This document shows, piece after piece, positions 20,780 through 40,065 of a stretch of DNA of 64,000 nucleotides (positions are counted from its first letter, which is position 1; each line of letters opens with the position of its first letter). The translations under genes and the position numbers were made by a program. The stretch is taken from contig CM102289.1 in the NCBI GenBank assembly GCA_046563655.1, positions 434,001-498,000 on the forward strand, written 5' to 3'. Below the pieces are notes generated by a model that saw only the letters and a program-made list of their open reading frames with translations, had not been told where the DNA came from and ran no database searches. The DNA is from Yuukianura sp. NJ FZ-2021. Taxonomy: Eukaryota.

Positions 20780-20883
20780 AAACCAAGTTCAACAAACCTT
20801 GTTTAGAGCTAACCATTTGTTGATTCGGTTAGACGTACGTTATTATTGTAGTACGTACAATTCAAATAGCGCTGGTCAGCGTC

Positions 20884-21513
20884 ATGTATTCCTTATTGTT
20901 ACCACTCGTTTTGAATGTAATTCCCGTTTTACGAGTGTCGGCAAATTCAGAAACACTTCGCAATACGTACAACATTGTGAATCTTCATCAACTGGTAGAT
21001 CAGTTTTCCCATAGTGACAATTTGATAATCGCTGAAGATCAGAAGTACCAAATTACTGCAAGTTTCGCCGTTCCGATAAAATTGTATTATATGTGCAACA
21101 AAAATGCAACTTTGGAACCTCCTTTTGAGAAGTTCCATGCTATTAAACGCATGCACATATCAGGTAACAAACTCAGCTACTTTCAAATTTTCCTTGTATT
21201 TCCAAAAAGCATTTATCCACGGAGTTACACGACCGAACGACGACCTTTTTATAGAGTACTTTACTGGAAACGTGATTTCATGCGAACCATAGGTGTTTCA
21301 ATTCATATTGTAGAGCCAGTCAGTGCCATTAGCTCTAGTGCTATAGGCTTAATACTAGAACAACTCCCGTATGCATCCATGTTTTACTATGATATATCAT
21401 CTTCAGCACATTCTCAATTCGCACGAAATGGCCACGAATACATGATTTCAGCAATGTGGTTGCACTTCATCCAAAGGGACGTGTACACTGTAGAATCAAA
21501 CATTGATGAAATA
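20884..21513 (+). pseudogene. IR-like gene copy 3, 5' part, truncated by the BEL/Pao insertion
   Basis: MYSLLLPLVLNV...NTYNIVNLHQLVDQFSHSDNLII is homologous to copies 1 and 2 up to GATGAAATA, then LTR sequence begins. Confidence 0.85.
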
Positions 21514-21840
21514 TGTAAGGATGTTCAACTGCTACCCGCTAGAATGACTGAATCCTTCGTTGTTCGTAGACTGTGTTTACTGAATGATCGATTTATTTAA
21601 CTGAATTGACCAATTAACTCTTTTTACACTTTCTTTTTTGTCCTGTCTCTTGAATATCTAAAATTCGACTCTCTTCTTTTTTTTCTTACTTTTTTCTAAC
21701 TAACAAAAACCTAAAAATAACACACAAAAAACGCTATTTTGAATTTCCCTCTCCCATTCCCTCAAAATCTCAAATTCTAAAAAATACCAAAAGTCAAAAC
21801 CTAAAATTTACAAAAAATAACCTAATTTCAGATCCCAACA
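21514..21840 (-). repeat. 3' LTR of the BEL/Pao element (327 bp, TG...CA)
   Basis: Minus strand TGTTGGGATC...CCTTACA, immediately preceded by the polypurine tract. Confidence 0.9.
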
Positions 21841-21922: not shown

Positions 21923-23548
21923 CTAATATGTCCATGATCCATATCCATACCGAGTTGGCTTCTTGACCTTACGTCCTGACCTCGTTTCTTTGTAGTCATC
22001 GTCAGGCTCCTCTGATTGGTTCGACTCCGGCTCAACGACTTTAGTCGACCGCTTTTTCAAACTCCGAACTTTGTCTGTAGTGATCTCCGCTGGTGGACTT
22101 GAAATTTCCAGTGGGTAGATCCGCTGGATTGGGCGAGTCAAGATGTGACATCCGAAATCCTTCTTCTCACTGGATGCGTTGGAGACTTTGACCTTGACCA
22201 CCCGAACTTTTCCATCCTTTCCAGGAATGAGTTCCATGATTTTTCCCAAGGGCCATTGGAAACGTTTCTTCCCATCAGCTCCGACGAGAACGACGTCACC
22301 CACCTTGAGAATGGTACTTCCTTCAGATGACTTCTGCACCAGCATAGCTAAGTACTCCTTCCGAAATCTTGCTTGTAGGGTCATTTTCATCGTCTGTAGT
22401 TTGGAGTACGCTTTTCTGTAATTGTCCGCTCCAATTTGCTCTCCTTCTGGGAAACACCCAAGTGGTAAGTCCCGCATGAACATCCTTGGTGTCAGCGGCG
22501 TCAGATCGTTGTAATCTTCTGTGAGAGTCGTCAATGGCCGATCGTTGATTGTTCCAGCGATTGAGTAGATGCAAGTAAGGGACTGCTCGTAGGTTAGCTT
22601 TGCATTACCCATCATTCTTCTGAGTAGTTCCTTGACGGATCTGACCATACGTTCCCAAAATCCTCCCCACCACGGTGCTGCTGGAGGATTGAACGTCCAG
22701 ATGATCTCCTTGACCTTGAATTTTTCTTCCAACGTCTTCCAGTCGAGGTCTTTCATCAGATTCTTAGCGCCAACAAAATTCGTCCCGTTGTCGCTGTAGA
22801 TCCGGTTTGGACGCCCAATGATACTGATGAATCGCTCAATGGATTCTAGAAATGCTTCAGTGGAGAGTGAGGTGACCAAGTCCAAATGTACTCCCCTATA
22901 CACTGCGCATGTGAACAGCACAATCCATGCCTTGGTCCCTCCTTTGAGTATAATCGGTCCCGCTAAGTCCACTCCTGTTGTTTGAAACGCGAATGACGTT
23001 GAGACTCGATCCTTTGGCAGTGGTGCTGATTCACAACTGATTTTCTTTGACGTATGACGGCGACAAATGACACACTGACGAATAACTTTTCCCACCGTCT
23101 TCCTTCCTTGCTGGATCCAGTATCTCTCCCGTAACTTTCCAAGTACGACTTGTGTCCCAGCATGCCCCATGGACCTATGGACATGGTAAATCAGCTGATT
23201 GACTATCGGTTCCCCTCGTGGCAACAAAACCGGTGTCCGGAAGTTCTCTGTGTCATCTTTGTAGAGGAGTCTTGAGGTCACCTTCCATAGTCCGTCGCTC
23301 CTCTTCACGTCCAGATTTTTCCAATCAGCCGACTGCAACTTGTCACCAAATCTTTCTTTCTGAAGTTGACGAATCAAGTCTTCTTCTGCCTTTAACATCT
23401 CTTGTTTGCTAAAATAAGGTGACGTCACTCGATCTTCATTCTTGATCCGCAGATTCTGGGCGAATCTTCTCACGTAGGCAGCTACACGAACATTTTGCAA
23501 GTAAACTCCGAATCGTGGCTCCTTTACTTCTGATTCCTTGGCAGCTAC
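21923..23548 (-). CDS. BEL/Pao pol C-terminal part: integrase (HHCC, DDE) and C-terminal domain
   Basis: HRSMGHAG...CVIC, GVDLAGP, YSDNGTNF, GGFWERMVRSVK, VGDVVLV, WPLGKI. Confidence 0.95.
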   Translation of the reverse strand, partial: VAAKESEVKEPRFGVYLQNVRVAAYVRRFAQNLRIKNEDRVTSPYFSKQEMLKAEEDLIRQLQKERFGDKLQSADWKNLDVKRSDGLWKVTSRLLYKDDTENFRTPVLLPRGEPIVNQLIYHVHRSMGHAGTQVVLGKLRERYWIQQGRKTVGKVIRQCVICRRHTSKKISCESAPLPKDRVSTSFAFQTTGVDLAGPIILKGGTKAWIVLFTCAVYRGVHLDLVTSLSTEAFLESIERFISIIGRPNRIYSDNGTNFVGAKNLMKDLDWKTLEEKFKVKEIIWTFNPPAAPWWGGFWERMVRSVKELLRRMMGNAKLTYEQSLTCIYSIAGTINDRPLTTLTEDYNDLTPLTPRMFMRDLPLGCFPEGEQIGADNYRKAYSKLQTMKMTLQARFRKEYLAMLVQKSSEGSTILKVGDVVLVGADGKKRFQWPLGKIMELIPGKDGKVRVVKVKVSNASSEKKDFGCHILTRPIQRIYPLEISSPPAEITTDKVRSLKKRSTKVVEPESNQSEEPDDDYKETRSGRKVKKPTRYGYGSWTY

Positions 23549-23664
23549 AGTAGGGAGATAGGACGGACATTCGACTCAAAATGACCTTTGGACCCATAAG
23601 CTTTTTCACAGCATGAGTTCTAGCCCCAATCAGCTGTTAATTAAAGCTAATTAAGACTTCCTGT
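23549..23664 (+). repeat. Left TIR of the Maverick
   Basis: Exact reverse complement of 36004-36119, with an imperfect extension to ~23698. Confidence 0.95.
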
Positions 23665-23824
23665 GACCGAGCTTAATTAGTACCTTTGTCCGTTAACACC
23701 TTGGACAAATAGGAATCCAAGGAGTTTTGGTTATCCAATGGGATTCCTGAATACCTCGACCAAGACGCTTAAAAGGAGATGATGAAGCCTAAATAGTCAG
23801 TTACTTTGTCAGCTTCACAGCGTC

Positions 23825-24193
23825 ATGGCCATATTTTTCGATTTAAGGGCGAGCCGGTTTCCTGTCTACCATTTCTTGTCACCAATCTTAAAGAACAAAT
23901 TCCACGAGGCATTGGACAACTTTGTGGACTATACACAACAAATCCGAACCAAGGAAGGCTGCAACAGGATTTTTACCGAATACCCACTTCTCCAAGGATT
24001 TGAAGACGATCAGCATGCTGATTCCATGTGGATGTACATACTTGGAAAATATTCTAATTCTTTATTGGACTCTTACGTGGCTAATATTGTTGAAAACTTT
24101 TCCGTCAATTCAAAGTCGAATCTATTAATTTTTCAAGAAATTTTTGCCATGCAATTCATTGTTGCTGCTGTTACTTTTAAGCCGAATGAATAA
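23825..24193 (+). CDS. Maverick accessory ORF of unknown function (122 aa)
   Basis: ATG-initiated ORF inside the left end, convergent with and overlapping the protease; AATAAA at its stop. Confidence 0.5.
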   Translation: MAIFFDLRASRFPVYHFLSPILKNKFHEALDNFVDYTQQIRTKEGCNRIFTEYPLLQGFEDDQHADSMWMYILGKYSNSLLDSYVANIVENFSVNSKSNLLIFQEIFAMQFIVAAVTFKPNE

Positions 24194-24724
24194 AAGTTCG
24201 TATTGTTCACAAAATTTTTTGCAGCACTGAACAGTGCGTGGAAATACAGAGCCAAGTCTACAAATTCTTTTCTTTACAAAGTTTACAACAATTTTATCAT
24301 TTGCTACAGTATCATTTGTAAAGCTTCTATACATATTTCCAATACATCCATTTTCTCTGAATAGCTTATGAAGAAAGTAAATTGTATAGTGACCACAAAC
24401 ATCACTGGTGATGCTCTGTAGAATTCTATCCGAATCAATAAGTTTTGAAGAATTAATATTCACAAAGTTTCTAAATACTTCATTGTAGCTTTCGATCCCT
24501 CTTCCATAGGAATCTATGAAAATGATAGGACATGATTTTTCCGCCTGGTAAAGTGCAAGCCAGTGTTGCCCTGGTTTAGAGCTAACATCAGAATTACAAA
24601 CTAAATACAATGGGTATTTTTCAATTTTTAAATTTACAAGCAAGTCGCATGGTATTACATTAAATGTACAACTATTGTCTGCCAAGAAGCAGTTTAGGTA
24701 TCCATAAATTTCTTCGGTATTCAT
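24125..24724 (-). CDS. Maverick adenain-like cysteine maturation protease
   Basis: NSDVSSKPGQHWLA (His), FIDSYG (Asp), LQSITSDVCGHY (Gln, Cys). Confidence 0.92.
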   Translation of the reverse strand: MNTEEIYGYLNCFLADNSCTFNVIPCDLLVNLKIEKYPLYLVCNSDVSSKPGQHWLALYQAEKSCPIIFIDSYGRGIESYNEVFRNFVNINSSKLIDSDRILQSITSDVCGHYTIYFLHKLFRENGCIGNMYRSFTNDTVANDKIVVNFVKKRICRLGSVFPRTVQCCKKFCEQYELLFIRLKSNSSNNELHGKNFLKN

Positions 24725-26058
24725 ACTTCAATTATTGGAGAGTTTGGAAAATCTTTGAAGTAGGCGTTCTTGCTTTTATCAATATACAGCACTGATTGAT
24801 ACTCAGCATAGACGATCACGGTAACAGACTCGGTTAGAGCTTCTCTAAATGCCAAATCAATCTTCACGTTTCCGTACTTGGGGAGTGCAAATCCATCTCG
24901 AATGTGTCGAAGGTTGTAAACTAGCAGAGGATGTCTCTTAAATGTTTCCCGTGTGATATCCAAGCCAACGTCTTCATTCGAAACTCCGAGTCCTTCAAAC
25001 AGGTTGTTGTAGAGTTGAATGTATTGATTTTGACTGAAATCCAATTGAAGAGGTAGATACGTTGTGTTGTCTCCATTTATAGCAACTTCCACTCGATTGA
25101 GGTTGAAATCTTGAAATCGAAATGGGTTCCTTTTTATATCTCCACTGTACGCTTTTGAGGAAACTAATCCCACAACAATTCGATCTGGTAGTAGTCCGCT
25201 TAACACAGTGTCATTCACATCGTTGGTAGCTCCCGTAGCAATAGAATAGGCTTTGAGTTCCACACGTTTCATTGGATATGTTGCAGGATTTCCAGCATGG
25301 AGCGCTGAAATTGTTGCATTCAATAGTGTAGGCAGAAGAACATGCTTTTTGACTAAAAGCTTGGCTTCAACAATCCGAACCGTTGCACTTGTCGTTTGTC
25401 CAGTAAACAGGCAAAAGGCAGTTGGCGATCTTGCGAATGATACCCGCATATCAATACCAGGGATCAAGTATTTGTTTTGAAGAAACAAGTCGCAAAACGG
25501 GCGACCAATCATTTCAAACACTTGACTTCCCTTTGTCACTTTGTAGCGTTCACTGAAGCCATCTTCGTCGGTGGTTAGAACAGATGCTGGATCGTTTTCA
25601 CGATAGTACAAGGCGCATTGAGCTTGTGACTTTTTATACTCTCTGTTGTAGGAAAGTAAAGTGTCCAAATAGCTTCTGTATGCATAATGATTTGTTGCTG
25701 GTGTAACCAAGACTTCGTTCAAATAGATGGCTGCTTGTTGAAACATTGAGTGCAAAAAGTTGTTGACTGTTCCCACAACTGTTGCTTCTTCGAATTGACT
25801 TCCATCTGGTTTGACCACTCTGGCTTTGACGTAAAGTTTTGTCTCGCTCAAATCGATAAACTGAACATCGTTTGATTGAATGAAGAATTCCAGGGGTGAT
25901 GTTTGATCACTAATTGACGTGATTGGATAATGCTCTGATGAGTGTGTTGAAACCAAGCTGACATCATAGTGTGGCTCTTGAAACAGTTGTGTCTCTGAAC
26001 GGATGAATGTAAACGGTAGTGTGGATGGTGCACTTGCTAGTTTTACTCGGCGTGGCAT
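24721..26058 (-). CDS. Maverick major capsid protein (double jelly-roll, 445 aa)
   Basis: YPITSISDQTSPLEFFI, FIDLSETKLYVKA, VNNFLHSMFQQ, YAYRSYLDTLL, DLFLQNKYLIPGID, LPDRIVVGLV, NPFRFQDF; true start is probably ATG 26058 (see findings). Confidence 0.9.
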   Translation of the reverse strand: MPRRVKLASAPSTLPFTFIRSETQLFQEPHYDVSLVSTHSSEHYPITSISDQTSPLEFFIQSNDVQFIDLSETKLYVKARVVKPDGSQFEEATVVGTVNNFLHSMFQQAAIYLNEVLVTPATNHYAYRSYLDTLLSYNREYKKSQAQCALYYRENDPASVLTTDEDGFSERYKVTKGSQVFEMIGRPFCDLFLQNKYLIPGIDMRVSFARSPTAFCLFTGQTTSATVRIVEAKLLVKKHVLLPTLLNATISALHAGNPATYPMKRVELKAYSIATGATNDVNDTVLSGLLPDRIVVGLVSSKAYSGDIKRNPFRFQDFNLNRVEVAINGDNTTYLPLQLDFSQNQYIQLYNNLFEGLGVSNEDVGLDITRETFKRHPLLVYNLRHIRDGFALPKYGNVKIDLAFREALTESVTVIVYAEYQSVLYIDKSKNAYFKDFPNSPIIEV

Positions 26059-26059
26059 C

Positions 26060-26406
26060 TTAGAACAGAAACTTCCCGTCAGCTTTCCGCTTCCTTTTCT
26101 GATTGCGCTTCCTTCGCTTTCCAGAACCAGACTGATCCATAATCTGTGATCCAACTCTTTTAAAGCTTCCCGTCCGTGTTCCTTTATGGCAGAGGAAAGT
26201 GGTTGCTTCTTTGCAACCATGTCGGTGGCAATACTGGTAATTGCAGATGTCGCATGTGGTAGAATAAATTTTTTCAAGAATGGTACAAGATAGCGAGCTA
26301 CACTACCAAAGACACCACCAAGACCTCCACCTCGTTGTCTTCGGATGCCGGCAAAATACAGACGTCCGTCGTCAAATGCTCCTCCGTTTTGTAAGTGATA
26401 ATTCAT
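26060..26406 (-). CDS. Maverick small conserved basic/amphipathic protein (frameshift at ~26158-26161)
   Basis: FAGIRRQRGGGLGGVFGSVARYLVPFLKK N-terminus; alternate frame gives QSGSGKRRKRNQKRKRKADGKFLF-stop one base before the MCP ATG. Confidence 0.75.
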
Positions 26407-28242
26407 TCTTTTTCTCGAAACTGTAGTGTCACGGTCACACTTCCAAACTGTAATGGCATTCTTTCACCACTTTCGTTTAATATATACACGTGCACTGTGT
26501 CGAATTCGGATAAGGCAAGCTCCATGAAATGAGGATGTATGAATTCATGATGTTGTTGTTCCCGATTGTTTCCACTGTAGGGTACAACACGAAGACAAGG
26601 GGCTAATCTATCTCCAATATACTGAGGTCTGACCAAATTACAATAAACAAATAATTTGGTATTTCCTGCTGTAAGGAATATAGGGTAAGCCCCTACACCT
26701 TCGCACTTATGAAGACCAGAGACCTTGGCCGGAGATTCCTCTTCATCCTCACTGGGGGAGGACTCTGCTTCAGTTGTCTTGTCAGAAGATTCCGTTGTAA
26801 TTTCTTTGGAGGTTTTTCTCACTGGTTGATTTTCCCCAGGTTTTACCACTGGTTGATTTTCTTCTAAAGACACAGGTTTTGAGACTGGTTCAATTTCCTC
26901 AAGATTAGATTGAACTGGCTTGTCGGGTTTAACTAGTCTAATTTCAGGAATTTTCTCAGATGGAACTGGTTGAACTTCCTCAGCAGTTGGTCGAATTGCA
27001 TTGGAGACTTGTCGAACTGGTTGAACTTCCTCAGTAGTTGGTCGAATTTCATTGGAGACTTGTCGAACTGGTTGAACTTCCTCAGCAGTTGGTCGAATTG
27101 CATTGCTAGTTTGCGAAAGGGCTATTGGTTCTCATGACCACATTGACTTGTATATAGTTCCTTCCGGCAAATTGTAAATGTGGAATTCTTTTGCTTCGTC
27201 GGAAAACCGTAGTTTGTGGAATTCCGAGTAGTCGGTTAATTTCTATTGTGAAGAAGGCTTGCATTTTAGAAGTTCCTTTCCAAAGAATTCTTACGGTGTT
27301 TTGATTGATGAAGATGTAGATTGGAATATCACTACTTCTGCAGATATTGTTTATAGCGTTAACCAAGTCTTCAATGTCGGCCACTGCGGAACTATGGACC
27401 TCGTATTTTTTTGATTTCCTCGGGCTTGAAAACAAGAAAGCGACAGATCCTTCATAATTATTAAAGTCTGTAACGTTGAATTCCCGTTCGGCTGTATAAT
27501 CTTGAGTCAGCAGAAACTCATTTTCTGAGAAACCCAAGAGGTTGGCAAAATCCCTTGGATATATTTCCACCTTTCTGTACTGTTGACTGTACATGCGCAT
27601 GATGATTGTGCCAGTCTTGCTCTCCAGTTGAATGCCATTGTGTAGTAACAATACATTCATCGGGGTGAAAAAGCTAGAGAGCGAATTAGCTCGAACTTTA
27701 TTGTATCCTGTTTTTGTACGTTTTGCTGCCTCAAAGAAGTGAATTCCATTTCCATCACGAATTTGCAGTTGTTGTGGTGCTTGCTCATGTTGTATATATT
27801 GGCGATGTGATCGGCTACTTGTCAACTTCTCACTAGGCAAGCCCAACAAGTCCTTGATTTTTTCGGTCACTATGATGACTTCTTTTGGGTTACTCAACTC
27901 GATGCTATACTCCAATACGTTGTTGTTGATTGAAAATGTCGAATTTGGAAGAGCAGTCCTGAGAACATCGAGCATTTCATCCTGGGTTGTAACATCTGTT
28001 TTGCTTCGCAGATCAGTTTCAGTAACAGAGTTCAGCTCCCATCTTCTCGTAAACAGCAATTCGTCTTTACTTATAATGGCCAAGCCGGCGGTGTAGCTAA
28101 TGTCTGTCATAGCGACCTCCCATCGTCCAGGTGGGAGGGATATAAAAGTCCCAAGTCTATTTTTAAACTCTGGAATTGTATTGTCTTCATAAATCTTTGT
28201 TGACGCGTTTGACTGAAGAGTAACATAAAAGGATTGAACCAT
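26403..28242 (-). CDS. Maverick minor capsid (penton) protein with a large internal insert; frame break at ~27106-27133
   Basis: N-term FYVTLQSNAS...GRWEVAMTDISY; C-term LFVYCNLVRPQYIGDRLAPCLRVV...VTVTLQFR; 51-bp tandem repeats at ~26963-27105. Confidence 0.8.
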
Positions 28243-28288
28243 GTTGACAACTTGAACACGACTGATGATTTATTACAGTGTTTCGTAA

Positions 28289-29026
28289 TTATATAGACAA
28301 CCACCGTCCACCGTCTTGCCGTACTCGTTTCATTGCTGGGGTGTCATCTAGTAAAGCGGCATTCATGTTGAGACTTCGACGTAGTCTTCGCTTCATGTTA
28401 ACATATTGAGAGCGATGAAGTGGTTCTGTAGGTACAGGAGAGAACGAATGTGCCGGTGTAGTGTACTCCTCTGTAGTCGGTGTAGTTTCTCCTTTTTCAA
28501 GTTCCAGATACGCACGCATTTCTCTTGGAATATTCTCCACGGTTGACAGAATAACATCTACAGCATCCTCCATTCCAAAGGGTGTAATGTATTGTGCCCT
28601 GTCTTCAATTTTGATAATGTGTTGTAAGATTTGGATTATGCTCGATCCTGGATATCTCACTCCATCAATGATAATTTCAAACTTCTCGTTGTATTTTATA
28701 CGGGCTAACTTCATAAGATTTAAAATTTTCTCTGTGATATTTCTGTATGATTCTCCAACTTCTTTGAGGATATACGGTTTTGATAGTTCCAGAAAAATGT
28801 CATCTTCGCTCGAACTAGCGCTTGACACCTTTGTTACATCCTTAACAAGAACAGGCTTCTGACTGTCAGCTTTAGCTGTTTGGAGTTGTCGCCGCAATTG
28901 ATCCTGATAAAAAAGATTTTTGATCTCCGTAGGAACATCAGTCGCTAGTATTTCTCCCAGTTTTGTCTTAGGACTTCCTTTCCACTGCAGATATTCAGCC
29001 TCAGGTATTAACCGCATACGACGCAT
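28289..29026 (-). CDS. Maverick conserved hypothetical protein (245 aa)
   Basis: MRRMRLIP start, EIIIDGVRYPGSSIIQIL core and C-terminal QDGGRWLSI, a pattern typical of a recurrent Polinton ORF. Confidence 0.75.
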   Translation of the reverse strand: MRRMRLIPEAEYLQWKGSPKTKLGEILATDVPTEIKNLFYQDQLRRQLQTAKADSQKPVLVKDVTKVSSASSSEDDIFLELSKPYILKEVGESYRNITEKILNLMKLARIKYNEKFEIIIDGVRYPGSSIIQILQHIIKIEDRAQYITPFGMEDAVDVILSTVENIPREMRAYLELEKGETTPTTEEYTTPAHSFSPVPTEPLHRSQYVNMKRRLRRSLNMNAALLDDTPAMKRVRQDGGRWLSI

Positions 29027-29027
29027 A

Positions 29028-29375
29028 TTACTGATTCAGGAGTTTCTTCTTCACGAGCGAGAAAGCTGCCGGTAATAGCGAACCAAGTATGAGAGGTAAT
29101 ATAGCTCCTCCTCTCTGGCTCAAGAGCTTTCGTTTAAGATCCACTGATAAGCTCGGCTTTGTGCCTATCGTCCGTATCGGTCTTTCAAACTTCCTTAATT
29201 TTTCCAGGACAGATGGCGTGACCGGAACGTTCTTTCGATACACGTTGTAGATGAGTTCACAAATGCTGGTAAGTTCCTCTGGGCTAGCGGTTTGTAAAAG
29301 AGCCTTTCGCTGCTTTGGTCCACACTTTGCTAAATATTTTAGAAAGTGTTTATTCGAGAGTATTCGGCTAGGCAT
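29028..29375 (-). CDS. Maverick small basic protein with QRGG plus a hydrophobic tail (115 aa)
   Basis: FLKYLAKCGPKQRKALL...ICELIYNV...KRKLLSQRGGAILPLILGSLL. Confidence 0.8.
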   Translation of the reverse strand: MPSRILSNKHFLKYLAKCGPKQRKALLQTASPEELTSICELIYNVYRKNVPVTPSVLEKLRKFERPIRTIGTKPSLSVDLKRKLLSQRGGAILPLILGSLLPAAFSLVKKKLLNQ

Positions 29376-29454
29376 GGTGACGCATTACCGACCAGATTAC
29401 GACTGACTGTACAATTTAGAAGCTCGAGTATATAAAGAAATTTCTCAGTCTCAC

Positions 29455-29904
29455 TTGGTCAGTCGAATGGGTTGCATTGCTAGCTTTGGATCCTATTTGT
29501 GTTCTCTGCTGAAAAACAACAGTGAGTTTTCGGTTTGTCAAAACTGCTCCTTCAACGTTGAAATAAACAAAATGGAAGACGAAAATGGTCAAGACGCAAT
29601 TGGGGAGGACGTCTATCAGGACTTGTTGGAAATCATGCAAAAGAAGAAGAAGAAGAAAGACATTGTGAGCACGCCAACTGTGCTTCACGTCCAACGCTCT
29701 GCTCGTGGGTCGCCCCCGAAGCCACAAATCCTGATGGAGGGAGGATGGTCAATTTACTTTGGTGATGAAGTGGGGATCGTCTCGTCCAATCCTACCCATA
29801 TTCACATCAGAAATATTGAAGACTCAAGTATTGGAATCGCACTGAAGATTGATTTATTCGGCTGCTTGTTGCATAGTATGTTAGAACTTAAAAAGTACTA
29901 CTAA
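29455..29904 (+). CDS. Maverick accessory ORF of unknown function (ATG may be 29572, MEDENG...)
   Basis: Acidic then poly-Lys segment; stop overlaps the ATPase stop. Confidence 0.45.
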   Translation: MVSRMGCIASFGSYLCSLLKNNSEFSVCQNCSFNVEINKMEDENGQDAIGEDVYQDLLEIMQKKKKKKDIVSTPTVLHVQRSARGSPPKPQILMEGGWSIYFGDEVGIVSSNPTHIHIRNIEDSSIGIALKIDLFGCLLHSMLELKKYY

Positions 29905-30551
29905 TACATTTTCAAAGTTGAATAAACAGTACACAATTCTGGAAATATATTTGAACGGATTCGATGATCGTCATTCTGTTGTTGAGACATGTCCAAATGT
30001 ATGTAGCTGTTAGGGTTATTCCTTGTGAGTTCTTCATAGACCGTCCGCAAAATTCCCTCCTTCCCTCCATTCATCTGACGACTTAGGTGGTTAATTATGC
30101 TCGTGTCTCTCGGATTCCGGAATAGCGTTATGTACTTGCTGTTGAGAGTGAGCGTTCGGCAATTCTTGTAGAAAAAGTTTTGAAGTGTAATTATAATGGA
30201 CATCGATCTATGGCTCGATCCTCTGGTGCACATTGAGCAAACGTCTTTGGATTGTGAGGCCTCCTCCATAAAGTCGTCCAAAATCACTAATGTTGGAATA
30301 GTGTTTCCTTCAGGTACATCAACGAGTAGACCTTTTTGAAGGTGAATTGCATCTCCCAATGCAGACTTTAACTCGTCTGCAAAAGGTGGCTCATCTTCAT
30401 TGTAACAATACAACACTCGTTCAATGCGAGGATAAATTACTTCATCCTTTCTTAGTATCAAGTCCTTTATCAGGGTGCTCTTTCCGCACTGTGTAGGACC
30501 AGCGCAAGTCATTACAAATGGGTGGTGTAGACGATAGTCATATTCCATCAT
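29901..30551 (-). CDS. Maverick A32/FtsK-HerA-type genome packaging ATPase
   Basis: Walker A GPTQCGKS, Walker B LVILDD, SHRSMSIIITLQN, NSKYITLFRNPRD. Confidence 0.93.
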   Translation of the reverse strand: MMEYDYRLHHPFVMTCAGPTQCGKSTLIKDLILRKDEVIYPRIERVLYCYNEDEPPFADELKSALGDAIHLQKGLLVDVPEGNTIPTLVILDDFMEEASQSKDVCSMCTRGSSHRSMSIIITLQNFFYKNCRTLTLNSKYITLFRNPRDTSIINHLSRQMNGGKEGILRTVYEELTRNNPNSYIHLDMSQQQNDDHRIRSNIFPELCTVYSTLKMY

Positions 30552-30611
30552 GAAGGCTGGATGACAACTGAATATAATGGGCGAGACACACTCAATTTAT
30601 TCAGTTTTAAA

Positions 30612-31526
30612 ATGGCAAGCAACATAGCAACACGTTGGACGAGCTTGAAAACTCCTGGCAGCTTTAGCGGCGTGTCAAATTTTAATCCAAAAGGATCTAC
30701 TTCAAAGGTGAGGCGTGAGCTGAAGAAGATTCCTGCATATACTCTACATCATCCAGTTATAAGGCGGTTTCCACGGAGGAAGGTGATGGTTAGCGGGATA
30801 CACGAACAATACTCTATGGATTTAAAGGACATCCGGAAACATTCAACAGCCAACTTTAAGAAAAAATATCTACTGGTTGTTATAGACGTATTTTCAAAGA
30901 AAGCCTGGATTGAAGCCATACCACGGAAAACTGGCGTTATTGTCACCAATGCCTTGAAGAAGATATTTCAACGCAGCGGCTCTCTTCCGAAGAGAATCAG
31001 TGTAGATGAAGGAACAGAATTTCTCAATCAGACTATGAAAAATTATTTGAAGAAGCAAGGAATCGACTTGTTTTGGACACATTCACCTCTCAAAAGTGTT
31101 GTGATAGAACGATTTATTCGAACCCTGTTTTCAAAGATTCAGCGTTACATGACACATAACAAGACAAAAAGATTTGTCAACAGGCTTCATGATTTTGAAA
31201 AGCTATACAATAACACCTATCATAGAAGTATAAAGATGGCACCGAACAATGTTACTAAAGATAATGAGCAACTAGTACATAGTTATTTGTATCCTCAAAA
31301 GCCAGTTGATTACACACCACCTAAATTTTCTGTTGGAGATAGAGTTTTAGCTGCTAGGAAAAAGAAGACATTTGAGAAGGGTTATACACCAAACTATTAT
31401 GATGAAGTTTATACAATTGTAAAAATTCGAGAAACAATTCCTAGAGTTTACATGTTAGAAGATCCTGAAGGCGTGCCAATCTTAGGAGGATGGTATGAAA
31501 ATCAACTTGTGAAAATAAATTATTGA
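30612..31526 (+). CDS. Maverick retroviral-like (rve) integrase with no C-terminal chromodomain
   Basis: PGSFSG, YTLHHP, SMDLKD, IDVFSK, VDEGTEF, IERFIRTL, YNNTYHRSIKMAP, KFSVGDRV, FEKGYTPN; ends at WYENQLVKINY; alternative start 30561. Confidence 0.93.
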   Translation: MASNIATRWTSLKTPGSFSGVSNFNPKGSTSKVRRELKKIPAYTLHHPVIRRFPRRKVMVSGIHEQYSMDLKDIRKHSTANFKKKYLLVVIDVFSKKAWIEAIPRKTGVIVTNALKKIFQRSGSLPKRISVDEGTEFLNQTMKNYLKKQGIDLFWTHSPLKSVVIERFIRTLFSKIQRYMTHNKTKRFVNRLHDFEKLYNNTYHRSIKMAPNNVTKDNEQLVHSYLYPQKPVDYTPPKFSVGDRVLAARKKKTFEKGYTPNYYDEVYTIVKIRETIPRVYMLEDPEGVPILGGWYENQLVKINY

Positions 31527-34500
31527 GAAATGTCTTTATGTCCAAATGCTAATGTGTTAATTCTATCAATACCATATCGTTTAGTATCTAAACCGTTTAG
31601 CGCCCTTTTTAACGTTACTTCTGTGAAAATTCTATGCTCTACACTTCTAAACCCTCTCATACATACACGAGTTTGAACATCTTCCTTGAGGACTTTCTCG
31701 AAATCTTCATAAGCTATTTGGTTGTTGACAGCTATTTTAGTTATCCCTTTGACTTTCTTCGTGTATTCGTCTTTGATGAACCAGCTACCATCAGTCTTCT
31801 TTTGGTAAATATTTTTTCCATCAAATCCTTTGTAAACTTGCAGCTTTAAGGATCTAATGGTGTACATTTTTGGACGTGGACAAACGACATGAGTGACTAC
31901 CGAACCGGCAGCCTCATCTTTGAATTTTCCCAAAACTTTTTTGTTTGTGGGATCGTGAAACTCTCCGAAAATGGGGTGATCGGATTCATATTCGCTCATG
32001 TCATACAAGTCCTTGTCTTGGAGCATGTCTTGATAAACGTCATCAGTTTGGATGTGATAGATGAAGGAATCTGAAATAAAACGTTAGCTTTAGTTTAAAG
32101 TTAAATTGTGGAATAGTACAACATTTACCTGTGTCAGTATAAATAAGGCGACACTTGTCGACGCCGTATTTCGCCTGTATAGTGTAGTGATGGCGATACA
32201 TGATGCTCTTTGCCAGTTCAAGCACTGTTACCCCCGTAAATATCGGTTTGTTCAAAGTAACTTGAAGTCTCTTCATCATAAAGATGCATGTTGACTCGTT
32301 AATTGGGATGACATTCTGTACGGTGGGTTTCTTGTTGTAACGTAGAGCTTCTTCCATTGATGTAACGATACGAACATTCTGACGCTTGCGTACTTGCTCA
32401 ATGGTTTTACCAAACGCAGAGTTGTTGAGGAGTTTCCAATAATCCTTTTCAAAGTCTGACTTTGCCTTTTTTCTCATTTCGGTGTTAAAGTCGATAAAAT
32501 CCTTCATCCATGCTCTCTGAGTGAAGGAAATTCCACGGTGAAGTTTTGTAACTTTAACTCCAAGCTTCAAGTACTCCATCAAAATGGCGTGATGTAGAAT
32601 ATAGTTTTTCTTATTATTCAGATCAGCCACAAGTTTCTTAACTTTGAAGATTCCAGGACCTGTGTCGAGTTTTTCCGTCAATTGTAACTGGTGACTGGAC
32701 AGCTCGCTCTGTGCAACTGTACGGTTAACTGGAGCCGGAGGAAAATCGTTTAACTTGTCATGTAATAAAGGATCAATTTCCAAATCCACTTCAAGCATAT
32801 ATCCTTTTTCATCGTCCATGATAAAATGGTTTTCTTGAAGTTTCATCAACTCATTTTCTGTTAGCCAGCGAAATTGTCCAGTTGGAAGCGGAAGACTCAT
32901 GCTTTTACCCTAGTGAAAAAAATTAAATTTTACATAATAATTTTTCACAGACGTTGCTGAATACTTACATATAAGTTGTTGGCATCGATGTAGATGAGGT
33001 AACTAGATTCCTTTTCTGGATCGTATTCATCTCCCATGTACTTGTTGTTTGCTCTAGCCTCTCGCATTGATCCAACGCTAACGTATCCACCTATAAATAA
33101 AATGAATAAGAGAATATCCAACATTTGTCTTCTAGGTCTTACCTCTAATAGCATGCTCCAGCCAACAATGCATAGTTGGATCTGTAATTAGCTCTAATTC
33201 CACTCCTGATTTCTTGAGAACACAATCCATTGCCATCATAGGTAACGAGAAATAATGGGTCAGGTCCAATTCGTAAGCATGAAGCATTATTTTTCGGATT
33301 CCCTCCATCACATCAGCCAGAAGCGATACATCCAGCCTGACGTATAAGTCATGCCAATCTCCCATATTTTGGATGTTGAAGCTCTTCCACACTCTTTGAG
33401 CGTGTTCATAACTGCCATCATCAATGTGAGACTCTGTCAAGTCATTGTAGAAATCTTCCTTTGGTGGTAGAGTTGTGATTTCGAAATCCTTGCAAGACTT
33501 CATGAGAGAATAAGGGTAAACACCCTTTTCGAAGAGAAGTTCAATGTCATCGTGTCGTGCAAACTCTTGTCGTGTGATTGGAAATCTGGCATTGGGATCA
33601 GCTCGCATCACTTTCACTAATTTGTCTAAGGATTTCAGTGTAAATCCAAGACTGTCTGTAAACCTCAGCTTGAAGGGCTTTTTCTCCAAGGTCCATCATC
33701 CTCATCGAAATCATCGTGGTACGCGGGAACGATACTCATGGACATGTATTTCTCACTGCTTTTTGGGATTACAGTGATATCCTTGATGATTCCATCCTGT
33801 CTGAGTTTTCCAGCGGATTGCACAATGAAGTGAACGTCATAGGATGAAAAGTTGTGCATAAAGACGGGAAACTCCTTCTTGATTCGCGCTTGGAGGTTAC
33901 AGTCTTGATGAGCCATTCCGATGTAGTTGAACGGTGGAAGATGTGAATGGTGTCGCACTTTAGTTCCATCCAATTGCTTCTTGCAGAAACAACAATTTTT
34001 TTCCATGGCAGCAGCACCTCTTTGCGTAGGAGTCAGATTTAGCATGTCTGGTGCAATTTTTTCATAGTACCGAACTTCCTCTTCCAGTGTTTTGGAGTAT
34101 TCAGTAATGCTCTGAATAAATTTGGCAGCAACGTCTTCCTCATCGTTAGTGATATGATAATATTCACCATGTCTTCTCTTTCCGTTGAAGTCGACACAAA
34201 CCCAAGCATATCCACATGGCTTGTGTAGGTGAGTGCAACACTTGTTTACAGGTTGAACTGGTCTTCCACGTATCTCTTCTTTGAGTTGTCGGCGCTCCTC
34301 CTCTTCTAAAGTTGAGGGATTAAACTTTGGGAGGAAAGCTTCAAAGTCTGCATAGAATCGAAAAGGAACTGGTTGAGTTCTTTCCCACTTGTTGAAAGTC
34401 AATTTGTTGTCAGTAGGATACACAACTTTTTGAAGATCCAACGATGCGCAATATTTGATGTGTTCTTGCAGGGTTTGAATTGTTCGAAAATTGGAGAGAC

Positions 34501-35761
34501 AGTTGCGGCAAATATGTTTGACTCTGTGATCATTTGGGGCTCTCATTAAGGCTTCAAGGTTTCGAATTAGAATGAAGTGTGCGTTGTTTCCTTGCATTAG
34601 ACACATCAAGTCCACATGTATTTCCTTAGACTGTTGTGAGTTGTACAGTATTGAAATCTTGCTTTGTATAAAATTGAATGATTCAATTTTGCTCAACTTC
34701 TGAAAAATCATGTCATCACCATCCATGTCGTAACCGAGAACAGTTATAGAAATCCCAGGGTTCAGTTCTTCAAAGTGAGGAATCTGCTCTAAAGTCATCG
34801 GGAAATGGAGTCCTTTAGTGTTCAACTTGTATTCATTTGGCTGGTATGTCTTCACAAGCTTGTTAATACGAGCTCTATTTTTAGTTTCTCTAATTCCTGC
34901 CATTCTGTCATGAGCAAGTACTGACCACACGAAGCACTTGTTGTGGGAATTGTCAACCGACACTTTGCTGTTGTCAACGTTTAGTATCACACGATGGTTT
35001 GAAAGTGGATATGGAGTTGGAATGTAGGTCCCAATTTTGGTGAATTGATACTTTGTGGTGACAAATCCAAATTTCTGAATGGAATCCAGAGTCCAGCCAC
35101 TTCCTTCATTTGTGAAATCTTCAATTTGATCTGACATTTGACTACACATTACTGACCAAACTTTAGGTAGCATGTTTGCATTGAAGACAAGGTGCCGAAA
35201 TGATGTGAATCCAACATCTTTTGATTCAACAGTTCCATCTGCATGTGTTTTGGTGAAGTGACACCCCAAGGTGAAGAATATCCTTAAGTTCTTCCATCTG
35301 GAGATGTCCTCTCGTATGACTTCATAGGATGATTGCTTAACATTTGCGAAAAAGTCTCTCTCATCGACACCTTCACCACATTGAAATGCATCATGGTCTG
35401 CTAAATACTTCCGACTCATTTTCAGAGATTCCAACACTAGTTTCACAGTTATTGGATCTGTTGACACTCCTCCGCCATCTTGAATATTGAAGTCCGGATG
35501 AGTAGTGTAGAAATGCTCTTGGAGCTTATTCCGACAATCAAATGGAAGTCCACATTGCCAGCAGAACAAATGGCGATATTCTTGTAGAATACTCTCGTTC
35601 GTGACATCGTAACCTGGTGGCGCTGGTTCAAGGCAGTTCTTATGGACACTGTCAAAATGTAGTTTTAATAATGGTCGAGAGGTAAATCCATGACCGCACA
35701 GTATGCAGTTAAAGAGTTTCCTGGATGGCCCAACAATTGGTGCTCCTTGGCGCTTCGACAT
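31520..35761 (-). CDS. Maverick protein-primed family B DNA polymerase (~1357 aa after splicing), three introns, one frameshift at ~33679-33683
   Basis: Two N-terminal C2H2 fingers, EGSGW, YADFEA, EndoVII-like CxxC...HHSH...AHQDCN, HNFSSYD, KGVYPY, IRGG, DANNLYG, KLLNNSAFGK, YTDTDS, KFKDE, PKMY, KVKG; introns 33091-33142, 32910-32968, 32071-32128. Confidence 0.95.
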
Positions 35762-36003
35762 TGTTTAGGACAATAAGAGTCTTAGGACAATAGCAACAAG
35801 AGAACTGAACAGAGAGACTGAAAGTCTCCGTAAAAGGTGTGGTATTATATAGACTCTCGACACCTGCCGACCCCCTAAACCTACCCCCTAAAAACGCAAA
35901 TTTTTCTTCCTTTCTGTGGCTCCTCCTCCTCCTCATGGGTTCCTCCTCCTCCTCCTCATATTGTCAACGGACAAAGGTATTTAATTAGTACCTAACCTTA
36001 GAA

Positions 36004-36119
36004 ACAGGAAGTCTTAATTAGCTTTAATTAACAGCTGATTGGGGCTAGAACTCATGCTGTGAAAAAGCTTATGGGTCCAAAGGTCATTTTGAGTCGAATG
36101 TCCGTCCTATCTCCCTACT
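36004..36119 (-). repeat. Right TIR of the Maverick
   Basis: Exact reverse complement of 23549-23664. Confidence 0.95.
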
Positions 36120-37978
36120 GCTACTGTAGTCTTGCGTCTTTCTGAGTTGACGATCTCTTCTTCTGCCTCTGCGCAGATCCTCGGCCAATTTCCTTCTTCG
36201 TCCTTCAGCCAGGAGGGACCTTCCCACCATTTGGATTCCAGTAACTCTCGGGGTGAACATCCCCGTGAAGGAAGATCTGCGGGATTGACACTGCCAGGGA
36301 CATGCTTCCAAGAATCCACGTTGGTCAACTTCCCAATCTCCTTCACCCGATTTCCAACAAAAGTTCCCCAATTCTCCTGACGCTGGATCCAACTTAAAGC
36401 AGTGGTGGAGTCCGTCCAAAAATGAACTGAGTCGATGTTCACTGTCATAGCCGCCTTGACACTAGTGAACAATCTTGCTCCAATGAGACATCCCATCAAC
36501 TCTAATCTTGGGATTGTCACTTTCTTCTTGTTTTCCCTGCTGATTGGGGCGACTCGTGACTTTGCTGCCAACAGCTGAACTGAAACTCCCAAGTCACTCT
36601 CCACCCTCACGAATACGACACCAGCGTAGGCGACTTGACTGGCGTCCGTGAACACATGAAGTTGAACTGATTTCACATTTACTCCAGCAAATGCATGACG
36701 TGGGATCTTGATTTTCTCTAGAAATTCCATTTCTGTACACCAATTACGAAATGGCTCCTTCTGATCTTCATCCCACTCGACATCCCATCCAAGGTCACTT
36801 GCCCATGCCTGCTGCAGCATCGTCTTCGGTTGAATTAAGGCTGGTGCGGTGAAACCGATTGGATCAAAAACTTGGGACACGACAGACAAAACTTCTCTCT
36901 TCGTCACCTTCTTCACGTCTGGCTCCTTGGGTACTTCACAAAAAAGAAGATCTTGACGCTTGTCCCATCTGAGTCCCAGAACATTGGTGACGAATTTGTC
37001 AAAGTCAAATTCGGTTGACTTCTCCCACTGTCGGAGGTCCATCTTCGCTTCTAACAAAATGTCAATAGCCTCCCGTTTGAACTTTTCGTGTTCTTCTTCC
37101 GTGTCGAATGAGATGACGCAGTTGTCGACGTACAGCGACCGGAGTAGAAGCGTAGCGGTGTCTTGGAATTTCTCTTGTACATTCTTCAGATGTAGTTCCA
37201 AGACTGCTGCCAACACGAACGGACTTGACGTCATCCCAAAAACGACACGACAGTGTTCAAAAGCATGAAGGGAGTCTTCTTTCTCTGTATCCCACCATAG
37301 GAACTTCTGATAACTTCTGTCCTCTTCAGCAACACTGATCATCTGAAAAGCTTTGCGGATGTCTGAGATTGCCCCAATTTTCTTTTCTCTAAAACGTAAC
37401 AAAACAGAAGGAATTAGTTCCAGCATGTTAGGACCTTTCTCCAGACACTGATTTAAAGATGGGAATTTTCCAGTACGACAGGAGGCATCAAAAACAGGAC
37501 GAACTGGTGTCGTTGTGCTCTCCATCTTGAACACTGGTCGATGAGGCAGGAAGTGAGATGAACATTTTTCGAGTTGCGTCTTCCTGATGAATCCTTCCTC
37601 TTCCCACCCTCGAAAAATTTCACTGTAGAGATCCAACTTCTGATTCTTCTTTAACTTTTCAGTGGCAAAATTCAGCCGTTTTTCGCAGACTGCCAAGTTG
37701 GTAGGGAGTTGTGACTTGACCTCTTCATTAACCCATGGTAGGTTAACCACGTATCTCCCGTCTTCGTCTCGTTTCACCTTCTTCAGGAATTCCGCTTTGA
37801 CTTGGGCTTGTCTCTCTGCTTCGGTCATCTTTTCTGCCGAATCGTGTACCCCTAGTAGTTCCAGATCCCAAAGTTGTGAAACGTCGCCGGAGAGATAACT
37901 CTGAATGACCATTTCGGATGCGGCGACTTCAGCTCTCTTCACAGGTCCACACAGCATCCAACCGAAAACTGATTCAAC
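36120..37978 (-). CDS. BEL/Pao pol: reverse transcriptase and RNase H
   Basis: FLPHRPV, RPVFDAS, SDIRKAF, FGMTSSP, LYVDN, VLGLRW, HVFTDAS, TIPRLEL, WTDS, NPADLPSRG. Confidence 0.95.
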
Positions 37979-39813
37979 AACGCGAAAACTCCGTCACTCA
38001 AGTCCACTCGTTTTCCCGTCATCAGTTGTTCACGATAGTCACTTCCCACCAACAGGTCAATGTCATGTCTCTCCATTCCACTGCCACTGTGATCCAAAAT
38101 CGTGATGTTCTGCTTCCTCAGTTCACCAATCCTATTCCCAACGTTGGCACTGGGAAGAACACCTCCAATTCTTGGACGTTCTCGTAGGACTAGTGACTTC
38201 GTGTGTCCTCCGTCCAAACTTCTGACAATCAACTTGTGTTTGAAGAAACGGTCACAATTTGAGATTGTTCCATCAATCATCACGTTCCGGACCCGCTCTT
38301 CCCCAATTGGTTGACTTTGAATTCCGGAAGTCACATGAGACGTCACGTAACTGCTCTGACTTCCCTCGTCAAACAGTAGCCTGGCCACCATACTCGTCCC
38401 GTTCCTACCAAAGACACGAACAAAAACAGTTTTTAGTAACACCTCTCCACCACATTTAATTTCACTTAGAGATGCAGTGGCTTCTGATGCTCCCTGTGTC
38501 GTCAGCTGTTTTTGTTTACTTTCTGTCTTCTTATCATTTGAACGATCTGGGCACATGACATCATAGTGCTTCTTCTGACAGACGGTACAACGGATAGAGG
38601 ACTTGCAAAATTTGGCACTGTGGCCCTTCCGAAAACAAACGAAGCATCCCCTGGCGTCTGAAATCTTCTTTCGTTTCTCCTCCAGTGTCATCTTCACTGC
38701 TCTAAAGCAGTCTTGCGAGGAGTGATTCGATTTGTCACAAAATAGGCATTTTTCTTTTTGTTCAAGAAGCCCATACGCAGTAGGAACATCTTCCTGGCTT
38801 CTATCGTGTTGTTTCGGCTTGTTGACCACTTTCCGTTGAGATGTTGCTGCTTCTGGTTTGACCAATTGACGTTGTTCTGCATTTTCAACTTCAATCTTGA
38901 GGAACTCCATGATGTAGAACAAGTCACTTCGCTGTGGGTCTTCTTTACTTCCATCTCTGCCATAATTCGGATGCCTCTGCCAAACAACCAATAATTCTTC
39001 CGGAAGTGCTGACTCAACCATGGGATACAAAAATTCCGTTGCCACTTCTGAAGTCACTCCGAGTGACTCCAATGCTCTAGTGTGACTATCCAGGCTGTAG
39101 TACAATGTTGACACTCCATCCACTCTTCTGGTTGGTGAGTTGATCAACTTCAGCATTTCCCTGACGTACATCTGCTTGAGAAGTTTCTTTTTCCCGTATC
39201 GTGACGTCAGTGCTTCAATTACCTTTGGGTAATTCTCTTCTGACTGTGGATATGCATCAACGATTTCCCGTGCTCGAGATCCTTCCACAGTCGCTTGGTA
39301 CAAATACTGGAACTTGTCGGTGGCATGCAGCGTTTGATCTTCGTGGATCTTCTGGAACTGTGCCCACCAACCAAGCCATTCCTTCAGTTCTCCATTGAAC
39401 TTCTTCAGTTCCGTCTTCGGCAGTTTAAACTTGCGGCTCTGCGCACTGCCTGAGGCGGAAGTGTACACACTGTTCTCTGGAGTGATACTCTTGTGATCAA
39501 TTGACTCTTGTTTCTCCAGGAATTCCTCAATCTTCAACTTTGTCATAGTGAGTTTCTGGAGATACTCTTCATTGGATTCAGCTTCAGTGTTAAACTCTTC
39601 ATCAGTTGTCGATTCGTTGTCTAGTAAGGCATCAAGGATGATTCGGTCCAAACGACAGACTTCGTCATGAAGATGTTCGATTCTTAGCAGTTTAGCCTTG
39701 AGGAGATTAACATTTACTTCGGACGTCTCCTTCTGCAGTTCTGCCTCAACATCCTTCACCGTCTTCGTTGCCGTCATCCTGACTACTCTTCGTTCTTGTT
39801 TGGATCGATCCAT
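37939..39813 (-). CDS. BEL/Pao gag and aspartic protease (frame break to pol at ~37978-37985)
   Basis: KLPKTELKKFNG...DKFQYL gag core, Cys/His knuckles (CLFC...H...C, CFVC...H...C, CTVC...H...C), LLFDEGSQ protease motif. Confidence 0.92.
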   Translation of the reverse strand: MDRSKQERRVVRMTATKTVKDVEAELQKETSEVNVNLLKAKLLRIEHLHDEVCRLDRIILDALLDNESTTDEEFNTEAESNEEYLQKLTMTKLKIEEFLEKQESIDHKSITPENSVYTSASGSAQSRKFKLPKTELKKFNGELKEWLGWWAQFQKIHEDQTLHATDKFQYLYQATVEGSRAREIVDAYPQSEENYPKVIEALTSRYGKKKLLKQMYVREMLKLINSPTRRVDGVSTLYYSLDSHTRALESLGVTSEVATEFLYPMVESALPEELLVVWQRHPNYGRDGSKEDPQRSDLFYIMEFLKIEVENAEQRQLVKPEAATSQRKVVNKPKQHDRSQEDVPTAYGLLEQKEKCLFCDKSNHSSQDCFRAVKMTLEEKRKKISDARGCFVCFRKGHSAKFCKSSIRCTVCQKKHYDVMCPDRSNDKKTESKQKQLTTQGASEATASLSEIKCGGEVLLKTVFVRVFGRNGTSMVARLLFDEGSQSSYVTSHVTSGIQSQPIGEERVRNVMIDGTISNCDRFFKHKLIVRSLDGGHTKSLVLRERPRIGGVLPSANVGNRIGELRKQNITILDHSGSGMERHDIDLLVGSDYREQLMTGKRVDLSDGVFALLNQFSVGCCVDL

Positions 39814-40060: not shown

Positions 40061-40065
40061 TAAAA

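Follow-up and report, generated by a model that had tools for sequence, protein, structure and literature searches.

A stretch of 64,000 nucleotides from Yuukianura sp. NJ FZ-2021 (contig CM102289.1, positions 434,001 to 498,000; hereafter the window, in whose own coordinates all positions are given) raises the question of whether a virus-like DNA element lodged in one of its retrotransposons is still a functional unit. This element (23549-36119, 12,571 bp, GC 0.40) is very likely a Maverick/Polinton, a virus-like DNA transposon related to adintoviruses, integrated in the pol gene of a BEL/Pao retrotransposon. A sequence-only reading of the locus had described it as complete, young and possibly virion-competent. 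As assembled, this copy is not complete: its polymerase gene (near 33678), its penton gene (near 27131) and a gene for a small basic protein (near 26157) are interrupted, and in this state it could not replicate or build capsids alone. The polymerase gene is also predicted to carry three short spliceosomal introns, and it is the family as a whole, not this copy, that is a candidate for activity.

The polymerase B gene and its predicted introns

In the window, the polymerase B gene (35761-31520, minus strand) is spread over five frames, a feature that the sequence-only reading had not reported. Its first part (33679-35761, 698 aa) contains C2H2-like fingers, a DxE motif (YADFEAF) and an HNH/endonuclease-VII-like stretch. 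It is followed on the same strand by exon 2 (33143-33679), which corresponds to the exonuclease part, is 46% identical to the metagenomic relative L027 and is matched by Pfam DNA_pol_B_2 below the cut-off (E 2.3e-4), by exon 3 (32969-33090), by exon 4 (32129-32909), which contains the palm and is 43% identical to L027, and by exon 5 (31520-32070). The five pieces align in order to an uninterrupted open reading frame (ORF) of 891 aa in L027 (E 1e-15, 4e-49, 1e-8, 3e-68 and 1e-24, respectively), and the closest polymerase relative, P0121, passes Pfam DNA_pol_B_2 (PF03175) with 28.3 bits for a cut-off of 25.8. Comparison of the L027 polymerase with the sequences of solved structures gave no match. 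While the DxE motif is seen directly in the window, DANNLYG and YTDTDS are read only across introns C and D. Based on these alignments and motifs, the gene is predicted to encode a polymerase B of the Maverick/Polinton type, with protein priming.

The three junctions between exons 2 and 5 have the form of canonical GT-AG introns with T-rich acceptors ending in YAG, and their GC content is 0.24-0.27 compared to 0.40 for the gene. All three lie on the minus strand. Intron B (33091-33142, 52 nt, GC 0.27) reads GTAAGA...TTTTATTTATAG (...TATAG) and falls between HAIRG and GYVS; intron C (32910-32968, 59 nt, GC 0.24) reads GTAAGT...TTTTTTCACTAG (...ACTAG) and falls between DANNLY and GKSM; intron D (32071-32128, 58 nt, GC 0.26) reads GTAAAT...TTTATTTCAG (...TTCAG) and falls between YTDT and DS(FIY). 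The predicted splicing rebuilds HAIRGGYVS, DANNLYGKSM and YTDTDSFIY, the latter two being classical polymerase motifs, and in L027 the exon ends map to residues that overlap or adjoin each other (429/429, 469/470 and ~729-733).

Differences between copies of the element are unevenly distributed along this gene. They were drawn from the contigs of four DNA runs (X1 to X4) that come from two studies, bear two organism labels and contain 32-64% of the element's sampled words. Six of the 25 differences listed in the polymerase region lie in introns B and D, four of them in intron B, introns representing 169 of the 4,242 bases (binomial p 3.7e-4), and the density of the listed differences in introns is 7.6 times that in polymerase exons. 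In addition, a 2-nt length difference occurs inside intron C, with a contig depth of 701.7/1004.3 in X1, 706/2019.7 in X2 and 12.6/12.6 in X3, and none in X4. Homology to P0121 is lost right after DANNL, where intron C begins, which, as seen from the P0121 protein, would agree with the presence of an intron there in this relative too. The polymerase gene is predicted to carry three short spliceosomal introns, which the sequence-only reading had missed, and the usual description of Maverick core genes as intronless, which is not part of their definition, would not hold for the window element.

Several further observations concern this gene. P0121 possesses, at residues ~197-233, about 37 extra residues between HN and SYD, which are absent from the window and from L027; they are possibly an in-frame unspliced intron at another site, which would mean that intron positions vary within the lineage. 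In the first part of the window polymerase (33665-35761, minus strand, residues ~590-625), the DxE and N..YD exonuclease motifs flank a stretch, VRHHSHLPP...AHQDCNLQ, which aligns with the region occupied by Pfam Endonuclease_7 in more distant relatives (P0123 and others). According to published work, an HNH domain is particular to a single nematode/oomycete polymerase class (PMC10748475). Finally, the two introns read in a host multicopper oxidase gene of the window are longer (~150 and ~270 nt, estimated by eye). Not every host gene has introns of the short size seen in the element, and no inference is drawn from this.

Interrupted genes, copies of the family and competing explanations

The first interruption is a frame change near 33678-33683, in a homopolymer run at the 3' end of the first polymerase part. 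Since the relative search returned no polymerase above 32% identity, this junction was judged against P0121 and L027 only. It offers only weak GT...AG candidates and no canonical intron, in a segment whose GC content is 0.53, and P0121 has at this place an acidic-then-basic loop in one frame, homologous to the window stretch. The junction is very probably a break rather than an intron.

The second interruption affects the penton gene, which lies in two overlapping frames of the minus strand, again unreported by the sequence-only reading. Residues 1-148 of its N-terminal part (27106-28242, 378 aa) match the N-terminal half of pentons of 250-260 aa, while its C-terminal part (26403-27131, 242 aa, no ATG) comprises a P/E/Q/V-rich region followed by the last jelly-roll strands; the two parts are 38% and 56% identical, respectively, to the penton of the relative L001. 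In relatives, the penton is encoded by a single ORF (254-283 aa in 13 loci, and likewise in P0138 and P0140), and the alignment of P0138 and P0140 indicates that residue 148 of the N-part and residue 138 of the C-part should abut. About 367 aa are inserted between the two halves in the window, another feature missing from the sequence-only reading. This insert consists of a domain (N-part residues ~175-376) that is also present in longer pentons such as P0186, and then of a P/E/Q/V-rich stretch with a tandem repeat (26963-27105, minus strand) of period 51 nt (17 aa), 2.8 copies and 95% matches. The frame change near 27131 lies inside the insert and outside any homopolymer, and no canonical intron was found at this break.

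The model of the intact L001 penton (pLDDT 88.9) matches, in Foldseek, the mavirus penton (E 7.8e-9), the Sputnik penton and the adenovirus penton base. Its only low-confidence loop, residues 138-150, is equivalent to the insertion site, and the insertion is placed in a surface loop. On the fold of L001, the window gene, in its two frames, is predicted to encode a single-jelly-roll penton. It sits one gene from the capsid gene, as described elsewhere (PMC4028283). In the atlas, the penton tail pointed to the Sputnik V18/19 family at 0.94, a weak lead that is doubtful (check 5/10).

The third interruption, near 26157-26161, lies in a homopolymer run within the small basic-protein gene (26060-26406, minus strand), which occupies the position of 'PW' in vertebrate Mavericks. 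Its N-terminal 83 codons continue in the frame of the capsid gene. Because the capsid proteins of relatives start at the same ATG as the window capsid (internal MPRR) and the L001 homologue of the small protein continues in another frame of the window, this gene is considered interrupted. With three conserved genes interrupted, the proposal that the element is possibly virion-competent is unsupported for this copy.

Other copies, for which the sequence-only reading had suggested a search, are represented among the contigs of the four runs. Contigs at least 90% like the element number 665, 1,093, 272 and 403 in X1 to X4, and they were sorted into bands of at least 99%, 95-99% and 90-95%, the first of which holds 233 of the 665 contigs of X1. 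Because contigs fill all bands from 90 to 100%, the family is multi-copy and includes both older and younger copies. Among the 25 coding differences listed in conserved genes, 17 are synonymous and eight non-synonymous, for an expected synonymous share of 0.24 (p 5e-6), which points to copies that diverged under purifying selection for function and not by decay in place. Length differences between copies occur at or beside all three breaks.

Based on these data, we tentatively propose, at a little less than even odds, that an animal Maverick lineage gained and kept introns in its polymerase gene, one site being apparently shared with a relative of 32-45% identity; the lineage would be functional, multi-copy and dependent on host splicing, and the penton insertion would perhaps be a fast-evolving host-contact module. 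The leading explanation goes less far and is regarded as likely: an rve integrase put a Maverick/Polinton into the resident BEL/Pao pol gene, leaving a 5-bp duplication, the polymerase introns and the penton insertion are features specific to its lineage, and this copy is interrupted. Judging from the family, the life mode of the element would involve nuclear transcription, followed by protein-primed replication that starts at the inverted terminal repeats, encapsidation in an icosahedral particle and integration. With three predicted introns in the polymerase gene, expression would need the host spliceosome.

Several points weigh against the leading explanation. Of 1,233 rows of differences between copies, the 40 with the best support, covering 34 element sites, were used, the compared stretch includes ~2 kb of Pao flank, and the contigs give neither the copy number nor which copy carries which state. 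The ATPase, the polymerase piece and the capsid protein of the window all fall under the Pfam cut-offs, so that their assignment rests on relatives, folds and motifs, and the penton fold was modeled on L001 and not on the split gene of the window. As for the breaks, two of the three are located within homopolymers, where they may have arisen during assembly. At 26157, the length seen in the window is shared by none of the contig depth in X1, X2 and X4, a pattern that a mistake of the assembly would explain as well as a genuine lesion. At the polymerase break, ~87, 85, 100 and 84% of contig depth in X1 to X4 agrees with the window (the differing depth is 13-16% in X1, X2 and X4, with none in X3), and such a majority state is odd for a simple defect. 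Lastly, a decaying copy would not be expected to have perfect terminal inverted repeats (TIRs) and ~11 kb of coding sequence free of in-frame stops, as this one does.

On another reading, the copy is really intact and its three interruptions are assembly errors in a repeated, hard-to-polish element, in which case its description as complete and possibly competent would stand. Besides the homopolymer runs and the length at 26157, the exons without any stop codon, the TIRs identical at 116/116 positions and the contigs that match the window fully over hundreds of bases (684 nt in X3, 255 nt in X2) favor this explanation. Conversely, the 84-100% of contig depth that agrees with the window at the polymerase break argues against it, as does the penton break, which is situated outside a homopolymer in a stretch with several length changes between copies. 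The flanking Pao gag and pol frames (~5.4 kb) are without such breaks, although this argues only weakly against a high error rate. Overall, we regard an intact copy as unlikely, at roughly one chance in five.

Somewhat less probable still is that the first polymerase junction represents a fourth intron with weak signals, which would leave the polymerase gene of this copy whole. GT...AG candidates of 47-62 nt, i.e., of the size class of the other three introns, can be drawn there, no more than two residues separate the flanking blocks in the intronless L027, and most copies share the state of the window. Yet GTTCCC is the sole donor within range, a T-rich tract is missing, and the GC content of the segment contrasts with that of the three clear introns. 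The loop of P0121, 18 aa long and read in one frame, resembles moreover the read-through of the window.

It is even less probable, at about one chance in ten, that the whole family is inactive and decaying and that the element is an ordinary dead fossil. The three interruptions in one copy and the many contigs diverged by 5-10% would agree with such a fate. The excess of synonymous differences and the density of differences in introns compared to polymerase exons speak against it, and so do the perfect TIRs, the lack of stop codons and the share of X1 contigs at least 99% like the window.

Insertion site and gene content

The element is bordered by two copies of the target-site duplication (TSD) GCTAC (23544-23548 and 36120-36124). 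Its TIRs (left, 23549-23664, plus strand; right, 36004-36119, minus strand) are exact reverse complements over 116 nt, as had been noted from the sequence, with tips 5'-AGTAGGG...CCCTACT-3'; mismatches begin at position 117, and the inverted repeat can be extended to 135 nt at 94%. Within the window, the TIR matches these two places only (BLAST, E 2.8e-57), and a BLAST of the window found no other part of the element interior repeated elsewhere in it. TIRs, an rve integrase and a 5-bp TSD, three hallmarks of Maverick/Polinton elements, are present. The identity of the TIRs agrees with a young insertion; this is a weak point, since 0 differences over 116 bp only bound the divergence of the arms to less than ~2.6%.

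The host BEL/Pao retrotransposon (21923-39849, minus strand) comprises a gag ORF (37939-39849), located upstream of pol and matched by Pfam DUF1759, and a pol gene split by the Maverick into 36107-37993 and 21923-23575. Pfam Peptidase_A17 (E 2.8e-48) and RVT_1 are found in the pol half upstream of the insert, and Integrase_H2C2 and DUF5641 in the downstream half; with its Pao-type gag, peptidase A17, reverse transcriptase and integrase, the host element belongs to BEL/Pao. In silico deletion of the Maverick and of one GCTAC yields a single Pao pol frame of 1,164 aa on the minus strand (...RKTTVAAKESEVKEPRFGVYLQNVRV...). Because this removal restores the Pao frame with Pao domains in both halves, Pao was present before the Maverick, and both the exact restoration and the order of events given by the sequence-only reading are borne out. 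That the element is not integrated, the assembly having joined a free viral genome to a Pao element, is very improbable: among the contigs listed none spans the whole stretch, but such a chimera would yield neither a 5-bp direct duplication nor an exact in-frame restoration of the 1,164-aa ORF.

One contig of X1 has the length of an empty site, with position 23551 joined to 36129, one letter between them and two substitutions, and is best read as a diverged Pao paralogue without the insert. No pair of Pao long terminal repeats was found in the window. The sole repeat bracketing Pao is a direct repeat of 78 bp (98.7% identity, 21510-21587 and 40062-40139), whose upstream copy is adjoined by a satellite of 176-184 bp (40139-40933).

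All nine genes conserved among relatives are found in the element, including those for the predicted protein-primed polymerase B, integrase, putative packaging ATPase, protease and major and minor capsid proteins that the sequence-only reading had listed; together with the TIRs and the TSD, this gene set agrees with its assignment to a Maverick/adintovirus-like element. From the right end, the order is polymerase B, integrase (plus strand), ATPase, a 145-aa ORF (plus strand), a 115-aa gene, a 245-aa gene, penton, the small basic-protein gene, major capsid protein, protease and a 122-aa ORF (plus strand), all others being on the minus strand. The integrase (30561-31526, 321 aa) is of the retrovirus-like rve type (Pfam rve E 7.5e-13, 49.1 bits for a cut-off of 32.6) and also matches the integrase core of PFV, a foamy virus (E 3e-4). 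The ATPase (29901-30551, 216 aa) has a Walker A (GPTQCGKS) and a Walker B motif and sub-threshold Pfam matches (AAA_14 E 2e-4, Adeno_IVa2 E 0.0056). In an alignment of 12 sequences including that of the window, Pox_A32 is found in eight and Adeno_IVa2 in five, while the profile gave only generic P-loop matches (E > 0.1) against solved structures (PDB); an A32/IVa2-type packaging ATPase is predicted. The protease (24125-24724, 199 aa) is an adenain-like cysteine protease of clan CE: its profile (13 sequences) matches the solved structures of ASFV S273R (E 2.9e-8) and adenain (E 7.8e-6), with H54, W55, Q103, C110 and G111 invariant.

The major capsid protein (24721-26034, minus strand, 437 aa) has 369 relatives among 8,000 candidates scored, the close ones all being 430-456 aa long. 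Its AlphaFold 2 model (pLDDT 80.4, pTM 0.81) matches best, in Foldseek, the Sputnik major capsid protein (E 4.4e-15), followed by SGIV, PBCV-1 Vp54, mavirus major capsid protein, PRD1 P3 and adenovirus hexon. In BFVD, the top match is an uncharacterised protein of Cotesia sesamiae Mombasa bracovirus (25% identity, E 4.3e-26), and adomavirus LO7, 'Adintovirus sp.' and 'MELD virus sp.' proteins also match. Pfam DJR-like_dom reaches only E 0.041, and the nearest atlas clusters, one of which is named 'F54H12.2-like', carry PF21738 in 15-30% of their members. According to its model, this protein is a double-jelly-roll major capsid protein. Its profile gave only a chance match to the sequences of solved structures, and a scan of IMG/VR with the capsid alignment yielded 154 pattern matches, of which none was confirmed.

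Among the small genes, the conserved 115-aa protein (29028-29375, minus strand), at the position of 'PZ', was matched in 12 loci (48% identity in L001), and the conserved 245-aa protein of unknown function (28289-29026, minus strand) has homologues at the same position in L001 (E 1.4e-11) and L027 (E 4e-7). These two and the small basic protein have homologues at the same positions in metagenomic relatives. The searches returned no relatives for the 145-aa ORF (29467-29904, plus strand), for a 75-aa ORF overlapping the polymerase start (35709-35936, minus strand) or for the 122-aa ORF (23825-24193, plus strand), which has no family and in which both differences listed between copies are non-synonymous. 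Where the latter ORF begins, one contig each in X3 and X4 has ~60 nt (23821-23883) swapped for 5-6 other letters. The 145-aa ORF begins with MGCIAS, which we take to resemble an N-myristoylation signal, and carries a K-rich run. At E <= 0.01, Pfam gave no match for the capsid, penton and protease genes of the window or for the six small ORFs scanned.

In L027, the order is polymerase, ATPase, 126 aa, 247 aa, integrase, penton, 145 aa, capsid and protease, and the genes are packed as tightly as in the window element. No TIRs were found in L001 or L008, and L006 has three short local inverted repeats, none of them terminal; hence there is no complete relative for a size comparison.

Elsewhere in the window, two tandem copies of the multicopper oxidase gene (42300-49500, minus strand) lie ~4.1 kb apart, with repeats 76-90% identical and introns that split conserved motifs such as GTYW-YHSH. 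Three tandem units of ~4-5.4 kb (10660-21600, plus strand; pieces 68-91% identical) contain ORFs of up to 600 aa without a Pfam family, and the last unit stops ~320 bp short of position 21923, where the Pao pol frame ends. A 21-bp satellite occupies 59-371, and three copies of a 425-bp tandem unit, two of them identical, are found at 3152-4301.

Relation to known systems and significance

Vertebrate Mavericks (Barreat and Katzourakis 2021, PMC8097293) share with the window element TIRs and a short TSD, the same conserved genes and purifying selection on core genes. Their intact members measure 12,723-24,620 bp, with TIRs of 46-1,447 bp. The idea of a compact lineage is marginal by this measure: the element, at 12,571 bp, lies just under the smallest intact vertebrate one, and L027 is equally tight. 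The vertebrate modules polymerase-ATPase-PZ and integrase-minor capsid-PW-major capsid-protease are found as well, and the order of L027 shows the same two modules in full. In contrast to the vertebrate elements, the window element has a TSD of 5 bp instead of 6, three predicted polymerase introns where core genes are called intronless, an integrase located between polymerase and ATPase on the opposite strand, and a penton ~2.4 times longer.

Core genes have likewise been called intronless in nematodes (10.1101/2022.07.12.499685), and endogenous viruses of protists are said to lack introns (PMC10120064). Nematode Mavericks/Polintons (Widen et al. 10.1101/2022.07.12.499685; Jeong et al. 2023, PMC10748475) resemble the window element by their core genes, a Sputnik/PBCV-1-like double-jelly-roll model and their multi-copy state. 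They are described with introns only in cargo, whereas in the window element the polymerase gene is predicted to be split and no cargo region is evident. They also encode a fusogen of 866 aa; no ORF of the element but the polymerase nears that size, no profile search for a fusogen having been made.

Adintoviruses (Starrett et al. 2021, PMC8502044) combine, in animals, adenovirus-like virion genes with an rve integrase and a polymerase B, as the window element does. The basic C-terminal tail of the small protein in relatives may also be reminiscent of adintovirus pX-like domains (PMC8502044). Unlike adintoviruses, the window element is integrated with a TSD, no molecule ends were listed for it in the contigs of the DNA runs, and Pfam recognised in it none of the PLA2, gasdermin and cupiennin accessory genes described for them. 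The virophages mavirus and Sputnik provide the best solved-structure matches for capsid and penton, at a sequence identity of ~10%, and share rve integration with TSDs of 5-6 bp (PMC8547959). They depend on giant viruses and have no introns, while the window element is without sign of a helper virus. The top BFVD match of the capsid also recalls the Maverick-derived genes of braconid bracoviruses (PMC2646287); these remnants are without terminal repeats, whereas the window element has both ends.

Neither the presence of a Maverick nor the nesting of a young copy in a retrotransposon is unusual; the gene structure matters more. Novelty lies in the three predicted polymerase introns and the enlarged penton, although an earlier report of introns may exist, the literature search having been limited. 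Surveys of these elements have relied on intronless genes: one requires a polymerase ORF of at least 900 aa (PMC10748475), another uses a prokaryotic gene caller (PMC10120064) and a third counts 'introns' called by Genewise as damage (PMC8097293). A lineage with true polymerase introns would score as fragmented in all three and, if the lineage tentatively proposed above is real, surveys that assume intronless genes counted such lineages as degraded. For the biology of the family, the predicted introns would imply that transcripts are made in the nucleus and spliced, like those of adenoviruses, and they would offer a simple RNA test of expression.

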